This document shows, piece by piece, positions 3,663 through 21,614 of a stretch of DNA of 64,000 bases. The stretch is from the IMG/VR virus record IMGVR_UViG_3300045988_122521, one strand, 5' to 3'. The notes under the pieces are model-generated. The model ran no database searches, was not told the DNA's origin, and was given only the letters and a program-made list of their open reading frames with translations. Each line of letters starts with the position of its first letter. The stretch's first letter is position 1. Source of the stretch: a virus. The translations under genes and the position numbers were made by a program.

Positions 3663-3951
3663 ACTCCACATCTCCTATTGTCAAAGTTTTTCCGCCGGCG
3701 GCATTACTGACTTCGTACTGCGGTATCTTCTTTACCGTCACGTCGTCTCTCATGCGTTTGGCTTTTGTATGCAGCACAACAGGCTCGTCCACCTGTGGTG
3801 TTACCTCGTATTCCCCCTCGTAGTCGGGCACGATCTCTCCGCCGGTCTGTATCACGACATCCCTGATTTCGATCTCCACAACGGGCGTTCCCACTGGGGT
3901 CTTGGCGGTGTCGGCTTTTTCTCTCCCTGCCGCAAACTGCTGCAGCGCCAT
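3655..3951 (-). CDS. Hypothetical late protein (shares C-terminal AGGKTLTIG motif with neighbour)
   Basis: 98-aa ORF. Stop overlaps the next start. Confidence 0.45.
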   Translation of the reverse strand: MALQQFAAGREKADTAKTPVGTPVVEIEIRDVVIQTGGEIVPDYEGEYEVTPQVDEPVVLHTKAKRMRDDVTVKKIPQYEVSNAAGGKTLTIGDVEYG

Positions 3952-17641: not shown

Positions 17642-17884
17642 TTACTTCTCCCTCCATTTGCACTCGTCACAGGCGCCCTCGTGTGCTTGTTTGTACTTCC
17701 CGCAGTATTGACATAGCTCGTTGACAAGGGCCTTGCGGTCTGCCGCCAGCTTCTCGTTTGCGGCCATCAAACTACTATTGGTACCATCCAACTGCGAAAT
17801 GCAGTTACAAGCAGCTTCTAACTCGTCACGCAGGTCAATTAGTCTTTTTCTCAGCTTCGCAGTGTACTTAGTCACCAGATCCAT
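17642..17884 (-). CDS. Hypothetical coiled-coil protein
   Basis: 80-aa ORF. Confidence 0.45.
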   Translation of the reverse strand: MDLVTKYTAKLRKRLIDLRDELEAACNCISQLDGTNSSLMAANEKLAADRKALVNELCQYCGKYKQAHEGACDECKWREK

Positions 17885-18329
17885 CGTCCTCCTCCTTTTC
17901 CCACCGAATTTTCATTTGTGCCGGGTATAGGTCAACCTCCGGTCTGCGCTTACCCGTCCACCGCAAACCGCCAGCCTGTCCCACGCATTTCCAGCCGCTG
18001 GCTTTCAGACTCACACCGCTTTCGCTGTCCAGTATGTAGGTCACAAGCCGCTTATAGCCCATCGCCCTCGCCGCCCGCCAAGCGGCGGCGTACAGCATGG
18101 AACAGGCGTTGCGGGTTCCGTCTGTGCAGAGGCGGTTTACTTCCAGCGTCCACCCGTCGTCTAAATGCCGCGCCACAGGTCTGCCCACAATAGCCACGCC
18201 CACGATTTCCTTTCCGTCCGTGCAGCCGATGGAAAACTTGTGTCCCACCACCGGTTTATGGTGTCGGTGGTGCTGCTCCACAAAGGCGTTCGCCTCCTTG
18301 AGCGTCATCGGGCATACTTCAAGGCTCAT
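17868..18329 (-). CDS. GNAT-fold protein, possibly Mom-like DNA-modification enzyme
   Basis: 153 aa. The pattern LKEANAFVEQHHRHHKPVVGHKFSIG..GVAIVGRPVARHLDDGWTLEVNRLCT..NACSMLY resembles phage acyltransferase-fold (Mom/XF1762-like) families. Assignment is from memory. Confidence 0.4.
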   Translation of the reverse strand: MSLEVCPMTLKEANAFVEQHHRHHKPVVGHKFSIGCTDGKEIVGVAIVGRPVARHLDDGWTLEVNRLCTDGTRNACSMLYAAAWRAARAMGYKRLVTYILDSESGVSLKASGWKCVGQAGGLRWTGKRRPEVDLYPAQMKIRWEKEEDDGSGD

Positions 18330-18598
18330 TTCTGCTCCTTCACCGCCACGGCCTTGGCAAACTGCGCCAGTCCATCACTCATGTCCGCGATCTGCGCATC
18401 CCGCCGCAGTACGGTGTCCCGCAGTCCGGCGTTGGCTTTCATCAGTGCCTCGATGTGCCGCTGCTGGTTCTCGATCAGGTCGGCGGCGGCATCCAACACT
18501 CGTTCTTGGCAACGCTGCCTATCATTGTGGATTGTGCAGCCATGACACTCTCCCTCGGCACAGCACCGCAGCGCGGTCACAATCTCATCTCTTGTCAT
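18326..18598 (-). CDS. Hypothetical protein, paralog of 19078..19374
   Basis: Shares MTRDEIVTALRCCA, AADLIENQQRHIEAL, LRDTVLRRDAQI and GLAQFAKAVAV with its paralog. Confidence 0.5.
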   Translation of the reverse strand: MTRDEIVTALRCCAEGECHGCTIHNDRQRCQERVLDAAADLIENQQRHIEALMKANAGLRDTVLRRDAQIADMSDGLAQFAKAVAVKEQK

Positions 18599-18599
18599 G

Positions 18600-19097
18600 T
18601 CATTCCTCCATAAGTTTCATAAAACATCCCCAAAATGTCTGTGACTTCTTTCCGCTATGATGCCCAAAAAGCGGGCGTTCTCCGATTGCTGCCCACACAT
18701 CTGCTGCTGGTATCTGAGTTTCAGCCCACTTGAAAATCAATACGCCGTCAGGCTTCAATACGCGCATACATTCTTGAAATCCGTCATGCAGCATTTCGCG
18801 CCAGTTCTCGCCGAGCTGTCCGTACTTCTTCCGCATCCACGCATTTTCTCCAACGCGGCGCAAATGCGGTGGGTCAAAAACAACAAGAGAAAATGTGTTG
18901 TCCGAAAACGGCAGATCCGTAAAATCGCACTGTATGTCTGGATGGATGATGCACTTGCGCTCAGAATCGTGGTAGGTGCTTGACCAGACCGCGGAACATT
19001 CCTCGTCGCGGATATCGCAGTAGACTACCGCCGGATGCTGCTTGTCAAACCAGATAGTCCTGCTTCCACACGTCACGTCAAGTATCTTCTTTTCCAT
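18600..19097 (-). CDS. SAM-dependent (DNA?) methyltransferase, small
   Basis: Start MEKKILDVTCGSR with a GGAGG RBS. Has a DPPH motif (VVFDPPHL) and a glycine-poor motif I LDVTCGS. Confidence 0.55.
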   Translation of the reverse strand: MEKKILDVTCGSRTIWFDKQHPAVVYCDIRDEECSAVWSSTYHDSERKCIIHPDIQCDFTDLPFSDNTFSLVVFDPPHLRRVGENAWMRKKYGQLGENWREMLHDGFQECMRVLKPDGVLIFKWAETQIPAADVWAAIGERPLFGHHSGKKSQTFWGCFMKLMEE

Positions 19098-19374
19098 TCT
19101 GCTCCTCCCCCACCGCCACGGCCTTGGCAAACTGCGCCAGTCCCTCGCTCATCTCCTCGATCTGCGCATCCCGCCGCAGTACGGTATCCCGCAGGGCGGC
19201 GTTAGCCTGCAACAGTGCCTCGATGTGTCGCTGCTGGTTCTCGATCAGGTCAGCGGCAGCGGACTTTAGCGGTGGCAGACATACTTCCACCCTGTACATC
19301 GGACACTTGAGGCAGTCGTCGCATTTTTCGGTCGCACAGCACCGCAGCGCGGTCACGATCTCGTCCCTTGTCAT
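19078..19374 (-). CDS. Hypothetical protein, paralog of 18326..18598
   Basis: 98 aa. See the paralog entry. Confidence 0.5.
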   Translation of the reverse strand: MTRDEIVTALRCCATEKCDDCLKCPMYRVEVCLPPLKSAAADLIENQQRHIEALLQANAALRDTVLRRDAQIEEMSEGLAQFAKAVAVGEEQNGKEDT

Positions 19375-19375
19375 G

Positions 19376-21316
19376 TCATTCCTCCTCCGGAAAATGTTTC
19401 TTCGTCACGGCGATGGGAAACGGCTCGATCTCGCTTGCCCACAGCGCCGTGCCTTTTCCATGTATGCGCTCCCAGATCAGCGGGAAACCTGCGATGCCGT
19501 CGAACAAGCTCCCCAGCGTCGCGCCCTCCGGCAGATACCGCGCCATACGCCGCAGCATCCAGTCCCAGAAGGGCAGGGCGATGGAGTTACCCAGTGCCTT
19601 GTACCGTGGGCTGTCCGCACTTCCTTTCGCTTTTATTTCGCGCCCGCGTTTATCTGTTTTAACCCAATCTCCGATGTCCGTCCATCCGTCCGGGAAACCC
19701 TGCAGCCGTTCGCATTCCATCGGTGTCAGGCGGCGCACGACCATGTGTGTGATAGCAAGGTCTGTGCTGTCCTTAAAGTCCCGTTGCTTGCAACTGCTTG
19801 CAACCTCGGCGGCGCGGTAATCTCCAAACCCATTCATCTGGTATGTCAGCGGCACTTGGTTTCCGCCCGTGCCCATCCTCGCCTGCAAACTGGGGGCCTG
19901 CTCCCCACACTCGCGGATGACGTCACAGGCGTGTGTCATGTCCAGCGCCACCACTGCGGGCTTATTCCCGCCGCACTCGGCGTTCAGTGTAGGAGACAGT
20001 TCCTCTTGATAGCCGATGCTCCGCGCCTGTTCACTATTGCCCAGCTTAAAACCGGCGGCGATGAAGGTCTGCTGTTTCATTCCCGGCTGTGCGCCCAGCG
20101 CACCAGCTACATCATGGAGGTCGCGCACCTCGTCCCGCTGATTTGTGGCAAAGGCCATCACCGCTGGGGTTTGGTTCGTCCCACTGGGCGCCGCCGCCAG
20201 CACGGGCGACACTTCCTCACCGTACCCGATGCCGCCCGCCTGTGCGCCCTGTCCGGCCTTAAACCCGGCGCACAGTACGCTGTCCCGCGCCATGCCGCCG
20301 TTTCCGCTGCCATCGTGGTTGCGGCTTTCACCGCCGCCCTGCCATCTTGTAGCCTTGTCGTTGATGGGGATAGCCACCACCGGCTGATTGTTCCCGCTCA
20401 TGCCCGCCGCTGCGGTCAGTGTGGGCGCGCGGTCGTCTGTCCGCAGTTCCGCGCCGCCCTGCTGTGTGGCCATGCAAAAAATTGCTGGGTTATTTACCCC
20501 TCCGCCAATGCCACCTTGCAATGTAGGAGCTTCGCCGCTTGTGCCAAAAATACGCTTACTTTGGCAATCCCACGGAGTTATACAGCTTTGGAAAATTGTC
20601 TGATCGTTTCCCGTACCCAGCGTTCCGCTTTTCTCCGTCTGCACTAACGCGCCTTTTCCTCCTCCGTCACACCCCCCCCTGATGCGGACTGCATAAGAAG
20701 CACCTGCTTCAGCAGCTTCGGCAAATCCTTCCCCCGCCTCTCCGCTCTCCGCAATATCCCCTGACACACTTTTGCGCTCAAATTGTATTTGGGCAGCGGA
20801 TTCTCCTCCAAAATCTGCGACAACCGAGATTCTTCGGCGACGCTGTGGGGTCCCCAGACGGATAACATTTCCTGTACGGCTGTCTCGGATGGTTTTTCCC
20901 CAGTCCTTAGCGTCGTGAGTTCTCCAAGCGATAGACCACCCATCACCGTCGATGGCGCCTGCCTTTGTCCATTTCCACTTTTCCGGCAGTCCAGATAGAG
21001 AAAATCCTGGTTCTGCGATACGCGCAATTTCCTCCAGCACGGCGTGGAAGTCCCGTCCTCCGTTGCTGCTGTATGCGCCCGTGACGTTTTCCCACACAAG
21101 ATACCGAGGTCTGACCATGTTACCTGTCCGTCCATTTCGTTTGTCCTCCGCTCTCATTTCTTTCACGATGCGCACCTGCTCCATAAACAGGCCGCTTCGC
21201 GCTCCCGCCAAACCGGCTCGTTTCCCGGCGATGGAAAGGTCCTGACAGGGACTTCCGCCCGTTACCACCCACACCGGGTTGATCTCCGCGCCGTTGATAT
21301 TAGTAATATCTCCCAA
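19376..21316 (-). CDS. DNA (cytosine-5)-methyltransferase, multi-TRD and circularly permuted (motif order IV-VI-VIII-TRDs-IX-X-I-II)
   Basis: Motifs, N- to C-terminal: GGSPCQDLS (IV), YLVWENV (VI), TPQRRRR (VIII). Then five TRD-like xPTL/xPSL repeats, RRLTPMECERLQGFPDGWT, GNSIALP (X), LFDGIAGF (I) and WASEIEPF (II) at the C-terminus. Confidence 0.8.
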   Translation of the reverse strand: MGDITNINGAEINPVWVVTGGSPCQDLSIAGKRAGLAGARSGLFMEQVRIVKEMRAEDKRNGRTGNMVRPRYLVWENVTGAYSSNGGRDFHAVLEEIARIAEPGFSLSGLPEKWKWTKAGAIDGDGWSIAWRTHDAKDWGKTIRDSRTGNVIRLGTPQRRRRISVVADFGGESAAQIQFERKSVSGDIAESGEAGEGFAEAAEAGASYAVRIRGGCDGGGKGALVQTEKSGTLGTGNDQTIFQSCITPWDCQSKRIFGTSGEAPTLQGGIGGGVNNPAIFCMATQQGGAELRTDDRAPTLTAAAGMSGNNQPVVAIPINDKATRWQGGGESRNHDGSGNGGMARDSVLCAGFKAGQGAQAGGIGYGEEVSPVLAAAPSGTNQTPAVMAFATNQRDEVRDLHDVAGALGAQPGMKQQTFIAAGFKLGNSEQARSIGYQEELSPTLNAECGGNKPAVVALDMTHACDVIRECGEQAPSLQARMGTGGNQVPLTYQMNGFGDYRAAEVASSCKQRDFKDSTDLAITHMVVRRLTPMECERLQGFPDGWTDIGDWVKTDKRGREIKAKGSADSPRYKALGNSIALPFWDWMLRRMARYLPEGATLGSLFDGIAGFPLIWERIHGKGTALWASEIEPFPIAVTKKHFPEEE

Positions 21317-21338
21317 GTGCTTTATGGCGCGTCATCTC

Positions 21339-21614
21339 CTAATCTCCAAACACCACGCCGCACTCGTCCTTCAGCACGTCCTTGATGTGCTTGCGCTTGA
21401 TGCGGCCTTCGTTGATCTCCTGCGTGATCTTTTCCAGGCACTCGTACAGATACGCGATACTCTGCGTGTCGCGGCTGTCCGGCGTCTCCTCCTGGACGTG
21501 CCAGCCGCACTTGTCGATCAGCGCCATCGCCACCATGTCCATGCACTCCTGCGTGCCTCTGCGCTTGCCGTCCATAAAGATACGGTCGTCCCGGCTCAAA
21601 TGCTGCTTGCCCAT
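21339..21614 (-). CDS. Hypothetical protein
   Basis: Start MGKQHLSRDD, overlapping the upstream stop (TGATG). 91 aa. Confidence 0.45.
   Translation of the reverse strand: MGKQHLSRDDRIFMDGKRRGTQECMDMVAMALIDKCGWHVQEETPDSRDTQSIAYLYECLEKITQEINEGRIKRKHIKDVLKDECGVVFGD

Follow-up and report, generated by a model that had tools for sequence, protein, structure and literature searches.

The locus described here raises the question of whether a C5-cytosine DNA methyltransferase with its conserved motifs in a rotated order can be a natural, selected enzyme and, if so, how its gene is organized and what it might do for a virus. In the IMG/VR virus record IMGVR_UViG_3300045988_122521, a stretch of 64,000 nucleotides (nt) that we refer to as the window, the minus strand contains an open reading frame (ORF) of 646 codons, counted from a TTG (19376..21316), that departs from the canonical linear I-to-X motif order and instead presents the order III-IV-VI-VIII-repeats-IX-X-I-II. 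Comparison with relatives indicates that this ORF is a genuine natural circularly permuted C5-cytosine methyltransferase. Our overall reading, to which we assign a probability of about 0.75, is that the gene encodes a permuted orphan enzyme of probable anti-restriction use, that it overlaps a second ORF in the +1 frame, and that it contains a G tract that could convert the relation between the two frames.

An earlier note on this DNA had taken the 646-aa frame to begin at motif IV. The frame exists, on the minus strand, and every peptide quoted in that note is present, but the protein begins at motif III (GDI, aa 2-4, 21305..21313), its new N-terminus, which corresponds to G59-I61 of M.HhaI and, with the next residue (GDIT), is identical to HhaI G59-T62. 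Downstream follow motif IV (GGSPCQDLS, aa 20-28, 21233..21259), with the catalytic Cys24 intact, motif VI (VWENV, aa 74-78, 21083..21097), motif VIII (QRRRR, aa 158-162, 20831..20845), a variable region (aa 208-527, 19736..20695), motif IX (RRLTPMECERLQGFPDGWT, aa 528-546, 19679..19735) and motif X (GNSIALP, aa 576-582, 19571..19591). The segment FWDWMLRRMARYLPEGATLGS (19508..19570), in which the old C-terminus is fused to the old N-terminus, then leads into motif I (LFDGIAGF, aa 604-611, 19484..19507) and motif II (SEIE, aa 628-631, 19424..19435), and the ORF ends with ..KKHFPEEE and a stop codon, so that ENV, QRRRR and the C-terminal X, I and II of the earlier note are all mapped in the protein. 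Motifs VI and X were assigned from the sequence, motif III from a phmmer comparison with PDB, IV and VIII from both, I and II from the sequence and the match of the de-permuted protein to PF00145, IX from all three, and the X-to-I junction from the sequence and codon-position variability. All catalytic and S-adenosylmethionine (AdoMet)-binding motifs (I, II, III, IV, VI, VIII, IX and X) are thus intact within one unbroken frame. The nucleotides GAGGAGGAA provide both the EEE codons at the end of the ORF and the Shine-Dalgarno (SD) sequence of the next gene (ATG at 19374).

Profile comparisons locate the break. The ORF matches PF00145 with E=2.6e-25 and 90 bits, against a cut-off of 22, with protein residues 2-98 falling on profile positions 48-131. 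The best PADLOC model for the C5 enzyme is 'orphan methyltransferase' (E=1.5e-77; residue 2 on profile position 52), and the NCBIfam dcm model scores 86.8 bits, under its cut-off of 100.65, because the match is split. In all three, residue 2 is placed at profile position ~48-52, and the first ~50 positions, which hold motifs I-II, are absent from the N-terminus. The phmmer search against PDB aligned aa 2-56 with residues 59-113 of M.HhaI, GDIT opening both segments, aa 149-167 with HhaI 152-170 (motif VIII), and aa 526-545 with HhaI 270-289 (motif IX). When aa 600-646 were moved in silico to the front, the PF00145 score rose from 90 to 110.6 bits, and residues 1-146 of the de-permuted protein matched profile positions 1-131 contiguously. 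The motif mapping that the earlier note had proposed as a check is therefore in favor of its central claim, the circular permutation, which motif mapping, de-permutation and purifying selection across the X-to-I junction and motifs I-II establish as a conserved trait of a family.

The 120 top-scoring database proteins (467-941 aa; sources JGI, ENA, Logan and NCBI) have the permuted order without exception. The gene calls of these proteins mostly start with M-(I/L/V)-H-L-GDI.. or use the starts LGDI../(M/V)W(V/C)(V/I)TGG.. close by, about a quarter start with MGQRLNPF.. or MNPFGV.., the peptide of a frameshifted allele discussed below, and most end with ..KKHFPEEE or ..WFGEE. A scan of IMG/VR yielded 151 related stretches, the best 80 of which were analyzed; 69 of these 80 loci are permuted by motif position. 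The relatives among GTDB species representatives are mostly of normal order, with about four permuted members, all from metagenome-assembled genomes (MAGs). The query also matched the cultured Faecalibacterium phages FP_Toutatis and Lelie, the permuted gene being seen in the FP_Toutatis locus, and nr contains a permuted member annotated as 'DNA cytosine methyltransferase' (MBD8996066.1); the closest phage records are uncultured human faecal phages. Across 50-56 distinct sequences, variability at codon position 3 exceeds that at positions 1 and 2 by 2-9 fold in the blocks of motifs IV, IX and X, the X-to-I junction and motifs I-II. The permuted arrangement is therefore kept by purifying selection.

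The variable region can be divided into about nine units of 33-39 aa (U1-U9, repeats of ~35 aa) that resemble target recognition domains (TRDs), rather than the approximately five proposed in the earlier note; six of them contain an xP(T/S/V)L-type core, more broadly (S/A/G)(P/T)(T/S/V)L, followed by a G-rich stretch and ..P-x-V. Pairwise similarity of the units stands out against shuffled sequences (z=13.2 for U5/U7, 5.3 for U3/U8 and 4.5 for U2/U8). The units also have histories of their own: U6 is 96% identical to its counterpart in the normal-order enzyme of Angelakisella and 84% to that of Oscillibacter, compared with 44-69% for the catalytic core, and, among the relatives compared, U1 was found only in FP_Toutatis (72%) and U2 only in Oscillibacter (55%). 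The homologues vary in length from 467 to 693 aa through the presence or absence of units. Such mosaic units behave as expected of exchangeable recognition modules, and a long variable region made of TL-type modules may confer several specificities. This architecture is not special to the permuted clade and is common in the much larger normal-order parent family.

The resemblance to multispecific enzymes noted earlier holds for the tandem TL-type units, for the mosaic way in which these are distributed over the relatives and for aa 254-279 of the window protein, which weakly match residues 304-328, a TRD core, of the SPbeta enzyme MtbP (KRVYSPEGLSPTLTTMGGGHREPKI; pairwise E=0.03); it is a resemblance of architecture only. 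Multispecificity of the window enzyme is accordingly plausible, and the chance that the repeats instead form one large recognition domain of single or relaxed specificity is only slightly below even. The units are short, compared with the longer TRDs of the SPR and phi3T enzymes, just one MtbP core is matched, and weakly, and these repeats also recur in hundreds of relatives with no assigned specificity. A single domain of this kind sits poorly with units that are gained, lost and swapped independently of the catalytic core, as seen for U6, U1 and U2 and in the range of lengths.

Several observations weigh against the reading of the gene as a functional permuted enzyme. The ATG with which the relatives start is missing in the window (21316-21345, minus strand; ATG-ATA-CAC-TTG in relatives, ATA-AAG-CAC-TTG in the window). 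Because the ATG is replaced by ATA, translation must start either at the TTG that encodes Leu of HLGDI, which has no well-spaced SD sequence, or at the GTG at codon 15, the start chosen by the gene caller, which would delete motif III; the choice between the two is uncertain and casts genuine doubt on activity. In 40 of the 80 viral loci (for example, L002 (~3900-3910), L005, L007 and L008; the window is free of it), TAGA is inserted directly after the catalytic Cys codon (CCT TGT-TAGA-CAG GAT). The insertion lies within a nearly invariant, AT-richer 5' cassette of ~110 nt, in which a 27-codon micro-ORF, VKHLGDITKINGAEIEPVWCITGGSPC, ends with ..GGSPC and a stop, and the large ORF of these alleles then starts with MGQRLNPFGVLQVVHLVRQDLS. 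It should inactivate its carriers. Other frameshifts were found in FP_Toutatis and in several database proteins; given these and the presence of TAGA in half of the viral relatives, loss of function appears to be frequent in the clade. Finally, the AlphaFold2 model of the full protein, built from a 49-sequence alignment, was unusable (mean predicted local distance difference test (pLDDT) score of 31), because the alignment lacked depth and a query in permuted order does not allow the alignment of normal-order homologues.

Taken at face value, the stop and frameshift behind the Cys codon of 40 of the 80 viral relatives, the further frameshift variants, the lost ATG of the window, the out-of-frame alleles that arise via the G tract described below, and a motif I of the form GIAG rather than GxGG would fit an inactive remnant, either a pseudogene in decay or a DNA-binding protein that has lost catalysis. 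We regard this as rather unlikely for the window copy, which has all catalytic and cofactor motifs in a single uninterrupted frame and belongs to a clade with purifying selection on all motif blocks; moreover, engineered equivalents of this topology are fully active. The motif I form FDGIA(T/G)G, which the window protein carries as FDGIAG, is also present in active DNMT3 enzymes. Recoding at TAGA through a +1 shift, a hop or reassignment of TAG was considered and rejected, as no mechanism fits the sequence.

Interruptions of other kinds were also encountered. The permuted gene of FP_Toutatis (L090, 1492-2903) is annotated as two 'DNA methyltransferase' coding sequences: a frameshift between motifs VI and VIII fuses III-IV-VI in frame to the module of the +1 frame (201 aa) and leaves VIII-TRD-IX-X-I-II in the second ORF. 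The dmt gene of Escherichia phage RCS47 (L083, 1147-4434) contains an intein exactly at motif IV (GGTP-[C..HN]-CQAF), and a permuted relative of 941 aa (P0031) carries Hint/LAGLIDADG domains between VI and VIII.

At 20672..20679, on the coding minus strand, the gene contains a homopolymer of eight Gs (C8 on the plus strand; ATCAGGGGGGGGTGTGAC), where the methyltransferase frame and the +1 frame meet, and in the relatives the length of this tract sets the downstream frame. Tract length alone accounts for the frame relation among the loci that carry the G-tract junction. In one sequence context, G7C, or the G8T of the window, yields a single chain, G8C, G9T and G5C yield two ORFs, and G9C leads into the third frame; the corresponding series in a second context is G6C, G7C or G8T, and G8C. 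Sorted by their motif frames, the permuted viral loci fall into 51 single-chain, 14 two-ORF and 2 third-frame cases. The alleles with G6 (L009, L010), G7 (L033) and G8 (L062) have 300-nt flanks that are 100% identical on both sides, and G7/G8 and G7/G5 pairs show 99.3% flank identity. Thus, as in phase-variable genes, tract length differs between otherwise identical alleles and shifts the frame, and the G-tract alleles carry what, by sequence, is the signature of a hypermutable homopolymer. Against this, errors of assembly could in principle account for the differing G tracts of the contigs. A hypermutable tract may convert the locus between a single chain, two overlapping ORFs and an out-of-frame state.

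Programmed ribosomal frameshifting at the tract is not supported: 'G GGG GGT' is formally a -1 heptamer in the +1 frame, and the downstream 97 nt showed no stronger folding than shuffled sequences (z=-0.03). A second homopolymer was seen at ~20895-20905 (minus strand), where GGGGAAAAACC contains an A5 run at the spot at which three independent database proteins (P0185, P0187 and P0234) pass from the methyltransferase into the +1 frame with the junction peptide DWGK/PSETAVQEM; this run would be either a second frameshift-prone homopolymer or a site of recurrent sequencing errors.

The +1 frame itself contains an ORF of 163 codons inside the methyltransferase gene (20644..21135, minus strand), with its own ATG (21133-21135) preceded, at a distance of 8 nt, by the SD sequence GGAGGA (21144..21149). 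In the codon window over this SD sequence, the ratio of variability at position 3 to that at positions 1 and 2 is 1.13, the lowest in the upstream part of the gene, compared with ~5 in the adjoining windows. The N-terminal ~80-90 aa of the +1 product overlap motifs VI-VIII and are predicted by AlphaFold to be disordered; its C-terminal helical module, LSQILEENPLPKYNLSAKVCQGILRRAERRGKDLPKLLKQVL, was modeled by AlphaFold2 as a three-helix module at ~100-152 (pLDDT 70-91), the C-terminal helices being the only confident part. Over most of the length of this module (its aa ~100-152, 20680..20838), selection acts on the +1 frame, and the methyltransferase frame forms a low-complexity linker.

The ORF is stop-free in 75 of 83 close loci, and each of the six loci examined from distant phages has it, again in the +1 frame. 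It comprises 163 codons in the dmt gene of the P1-like RCS47, 135 in Streptococcus phage Javan102 (39% GC) and 140 in Ruminococcus phage NatCom_2329, and is also found in Mycobacterium phage Lucky2013, Vibrio phage PS10B.1 and Caulobacter phage DMCA; in P1 dmt, the +1 frame reads ..LLSQVLEQTSIPQR.. Among predicted proteins, it has 764 matches, mostly called as 'hypothetical proteins' of 150-190 aa, and it occurs in 514 plasmid records, almost all from Enterobacteriaceae, where the matches listed lie within genes that, like P1 dmt, bear a Dam-family adenine methyltransferase annotation. When 1.84 billion representative proteins were searched with a profile, the +1 domain was detected in 4208 clusters (2208 with E<=1e-10). 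Among the top 150 it occupies, with few exceptions, residues 1 to ~150; protein lengths run from 137 to 712 aa.

When synonymous codons of the methyltransferase frame were shuffled, a stop-free +1 frame of this length arose in 0.02-3.3% of the trials per lineage (P=0.0002-0.033). From ..ADFGGE, just past motif VIII, to the G tract, the codon-position signature inverts: the ratio of position 3 to positions 1 and 2 is 0.37-0.77, and variability peaks at position 1 of the methyltransferase frame, equivalent to position 3 of the +1 frame. Downstream of QRRRR, conservation is higher in the +1 frame than in the methyltransferase frame for the P1-like phage (55% versus 36%), for Javan102 (46% versus 33%) and for L001 (76% versus 62%); upstream of QRRRR, the methyltransferase frame is the better conserved one. 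The nucleotides behind the apparently conserved 'ILFER' of the methyltransferase frame also encode 'KYYLS.K' in the +1 frame. The stop-free frame, the inverted codon signature, the better downstream conservation and the N-terminal position in other proteins together argue that purifying selection acts on the +1 ORF and that it is not just a shadow.

That the +1 ORF is nevertheless a non-functional shadow of a self-sufficient single chain appears quite improbable. High GC favors long spurious ORFs, and the N-terminal half of this one is less conserved than the methyltransferase frame and predicted to be disordered; no family or fold match came to its aid, as searches of Pfam (E<=10), NCBIfam, PHROGs and PADLOC returned none and a Foldseek search against PDB gave nothing at E<2, which also counts against our reading. 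A shadow would, however, hardly remain open in phages of low GC (39-43% GC, P ~0.001-0.014), impose a codon-position signature of selection on the +1 frame past motif VIII, contain a module more conserved than the methyltransferase frame across Clostridia, P1-like and Streptococcus phages, form the N-terminus of the only ORF with TRD, IX and X in 33 normal-order genomes, or recur in 4208 protein clusters, at residue 1 in nearly all of the best 150. A match to TraM in a profile search of PDB sequences was dismissed as a chance hit.

Literature searches found no description of this overlapping ORF, which is apparently an undescribed and widely conserved overlapping gene. If so, many genes annotated as 'DNA cytosine methyltransferase' hide a second product, including the well-studied P1 dmt. 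Overlapping genes of such length and age are rare in bacteria and phages.

Two further features of the +1 products were observed. Many of them (P0241-P0385; L001 4001-4552) start with ..GQ(M/V)SLFDLD.W.GK.. The Q-x-S-L-F-D motif, which we take to resemble the beta-clamp-binding pentapeptide QL(S/D)LF, is present in 18 of 145 products in the strict form and in 55 of 145 in a relaxed form, and is degenerate in the window (QVTWSDL). In Lucky2013 (L086, 1191-2391), gene 113, a 'DNA methylase' of 279 aa with motifs I-VIII, ends without IX or X; the +1 homologue (1360-1839, MTFDQLDLFPS..) is in the frame of the downstream gene 114, with a stop at 1837-1839 between them.

The permutation point is visible in the comparison with relatives. 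In normal-order relatives, the segment that spans the two termini of the permuted protein is continuous: ..VTKIRFPD-MLHVGDITKL.. in Oscillibacter valericigenes, ..VTRLRFPD-MVHVGDITKL.. in Angelakisella massiliensis and ..VTTKRMPEVKHLGDVSEI.. in Streptococcus phage Javan102. The permuted proteins end with ..VTKKHFPEEE and begin with M-(I/L/V)-HLGDITK, and the old C-terminus GNSIALPFWDWMLRRMARYLPEGA is directly joined to the old N-terminus TLGSLFDGIAGF. The earlier description of the permutation point as exact is well founded, given VTK(I/L)RFPD-M(L/V)HVGDITKL in the normal-order relatives. The resulting topology, with a break between motifs II and III, is evident from the junction GNSIALP..LPEGA-TLGSLFDGIAGF, the end of the chain at ..SEIEPFPIAVTKKHFPEEE and the correspondence of residue 2 to HhaI G59. 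This II/III break fits the prediction of the permutation-by-duplication model. The gene would have its ancestry in a large family of mobile-element methyltransferases with normal order, and probably arose by duplication and fusion, after which an internal Met (..RFPD/M-x-H-x-GDI..) came to serve as the new start. The Met before motif III would thus have become the start, and the stop would have arisen right after ..FPE. The permutation has moved the AdoMet-binding strand pair (I-II) from the N- to the C-terminus and fused it directly behind the motif X helix. Because the N- and C-termini are adjacent in the ordinary C5 fold, the permuted chain is expected to fold like an ordinary C5 enzyme. 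The packing of X against I is likewise probable from the known C5 fold and engineered permutants, on which we rely here since the full-length model was unusable.

No tandem intermediate was seen among the loci scored by motif position. The idea that the window, one assembled sequence, presents a tandem duplication of a gene of normal order that was collapsed or mis-joined in assembly, a refuting case named in the earlier note and superficially plausible in that duplication is the accepted route to permutation and a tandem intermediate could look alike, can be set aside as extremely improbable, because the same order is present in 120 proteins, IMG/VR contigs, MAGs and FP_Toutatis, dozens of independent contigs (JGI, ENA, Logan and NCBI), with an isolate phage genome among them, agree in order, in termini (M-x-HLGDI.. 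and ..HFPEEE) and in flanking genes, substitution patterns at the junction and both ends are of the coding type, and motif I is found both upstream and downstream in none of the loci scored.

The arrangement of normal-order loci suggests a broader view of the family. In 33 normal-order genomes of cultured bacteria and MAGs (among them Angelakisella massiliensis (L143), Owariibacterium komagatae, Lawsonibacter hominis, Flintibacter muris and Anaerotruncus sp.), two overlapping ORFs make up the locus: ORF-A contains I-II-III-IV-VI-VIII (267 aa in Angelakisella), and ORF-B (540 aa) starts ~370 nt inside ORF-A in the +1 frame and extends over the module and the recognition units to IX and X. The +1 ORF likewise spans TRD, IX and X in about 16 permuted relatives. 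Another 12 normal-order genomes, such as that of Oscillibacter valericigenes, have, like the window, a continuous methyltransferase frame and a +1 ORF that stops after the module. This distribution suggests a split alpha/beta enzyme that was fused repeatedly. As in split enzymes, a second polypeptide is encoded in another frame and overlaps the first, here as the +1 ORF with its own SD sequence and ATG.

In hhalign comparisons, the best match of the +1 profile fell on residues 243-279 of SPbeta MtbP (..RLREILEDFVDEKYYLNE.., E=0.0013) and on E. coli Dcm 293-338 (E=0.04), both at the same post-VIII structural place. The module may therefore resemble the segment after motif VIII in canonical enzymes, which we take to be the start of the small DNA-recognition domain in the M.HhaI structure; the likeness is weak (E=0.0013-0.04, with low hhalign probability), a further point against this part of the interpretation. 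The 163-aa +1 product probably supplies the post-VIII piece in trans to the single-chain enzyme, and in many relatives the +1 ORF continues across recognition modules and IX-X, making up a putative 'beta' subunit of its own; conservation of the +1 ORF suggests that both polypeptides may be needed. A +1 frameshift right after motif VIII that would produce one canonical chain was rejected, as the module begins on the nucleotides that also encode the post-QRRRR strand and part of either the one or the other would be lost.

Extended to the entire family, this leads to a tentative view, in our estimate somewhat short of even odds, in which a widespread family of mobile-element C5 methyltransferases is a two-subunit, overprinted enzyme of which a gut-phage clade became permuted and acquired a three-state phase-variable poly-G. 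The second gene would start 370-500 nt inside the first, with the start of the DNA-recognition domain overprinted on motifs VI-VIII; the family would span phages of Clostridia, P1 dmt, and Vibrio, Caulobacter, Streptococcus and mycobacterial phages; and poly-G would toggle the locus between single-chain, split and OFF states, making the enzyme an anti-restriction methyltransferase with three phase-variable states.

The neighborhood of the permuted gene is consistent with a role in DNA modification. Upstream are a replisome organiser/DnaD-like gene, DnaB and a resolvase-like gene. Downstream, on the same strand, lies a DNA-modification island (17868-19374, minus strand) with a small methyltransferase (18600-19130, phrog_954) and a Mom-like DNA-modification gene (17868-18329, phrog_1384), each preceded by one of two paralogous genes of ~90-98 aa (18326-18598 and 19078-19374). 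Direct repeats within this region (18332-18490/19102-19260, 159 nt, 89%; 18558-18609/19334-19385, 52 nt, 94%) look like the outcome of cassette insertion by recombination. Judging from the sequence, the enzyme is an orphan methyltransferase encoded by a gut phage, temperate or lytic, that infects high-GC Clostridia. The match to the orphan methyltransferase model and the faecal phage relatives fit an anti-restriction role, in which the enzyme would methylate phage DNA and so evade host restriction. The homopolymer switch, combined with exchangeable recognition modules, would affect the escape of gut phages from restriction and also the assignment of hosts to viromes by methylation.

Among known systems, the window enzyme is comparable in its variable region to M.SPRI, M.Phi3TI, M.Rho11sI, M.H2I and M.SPBetaI/MtbP, which likewise are phage orphan C5 enzymes with tandem TL-type modules in the variable region. 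Unlike the window enzyme, these Bacillus phage enzymes keep their motifs in normal order, with an in-frame post-VIII segment (MtbP 243-279), and their multispecificity is experimentally proven, whereas the resemblance of the window enzyme comes from sequence comparison. The division of an enzyme into two polypeptides has parallels in M.AquI and M.EcoHK31I and, in the latter, the gene of one polypeptide similarly encodes the other in an alternative frame: the beta chain, which carries motif IX, is encoded in another frame inside the alpha gene (PMC2836561). In contrast to that beta chain with IX, the overlapping ORF of the window family carries the post-VIII segment, to which the 'T' alleles add TRD, IX and X (and I-II), and the overlap, unlike that of M.EcoHK31I, extends over 370-500 nt and is conserved over bacterial phyla and phage families. 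The G tract is comparable to those of the mod/hsd genes of phasevarions, in which the length of a homopolymeric tract inside the coding region changes the frame; unlike in simple ON/OFF phase variation, two of the three frames here give different architectures, a single chain and two overlapping ORFs.

Natural permuted C5 enzymes described so far (M.BssHII, M.Alw26I, M2.Eco31I, M.Esp3I and M2.BsaI, the zeta class or type H) all break in the variable region, in the order IX-X-I..VIII, and a 2023-2025 topology classification of prokaryotic methyltransferases recognizes zeta-like enzymes as the sole permuted m5C class. The comparison with M.BssHII made in the earlier note is apt insofar as both are circularly permuted PF00145 enzymes with motif X ahead of motif I, and loose insofar as the break points differ: the M.BssHII type has its termini in the variable region and both structural domains intact, whereas the window enzyme has its termini outside that region, with the break inside the large domain, between II and III. 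A search of REBASE by Slaska-Kiss et al. (2018) found the 'Type B' topology absent among natural enzymes (PMC5944983), and our literature searches found no description of a natural II/III-permuted C5 enzyme. By its motif order, the window enzyme is a natural example of the II/III topology that was previously unreported in nature. The natural use of this topology, abundant in gut phages, fills a gap posed by protein engineers and, with the normal-order parent family at hand, provides a natural test case for the permutation-by-duplication model.

The closest structural equivalents are the engineered 'Class B' permutants, in which the N-terminus lies between II and III and which were by far the most active (PMC5944983). 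As in these constructs, the window enzyme has its new N-terminus between II and III and its old C-terminus directly on the old N-terminus. The Class B permutants are laboratory constructs of CG-specific enzymes with one TRD, unlike the window enzyme, which is natural, phage-borne and endowed with a long repeat region. In the same study, the engineered halves Mpe[62-279] and Mpe[280-61], divided after motif VIII and before the TRD, complemented each other (PMC5944983), an arrangement that mirrors the two-ORF alleles of the window family.

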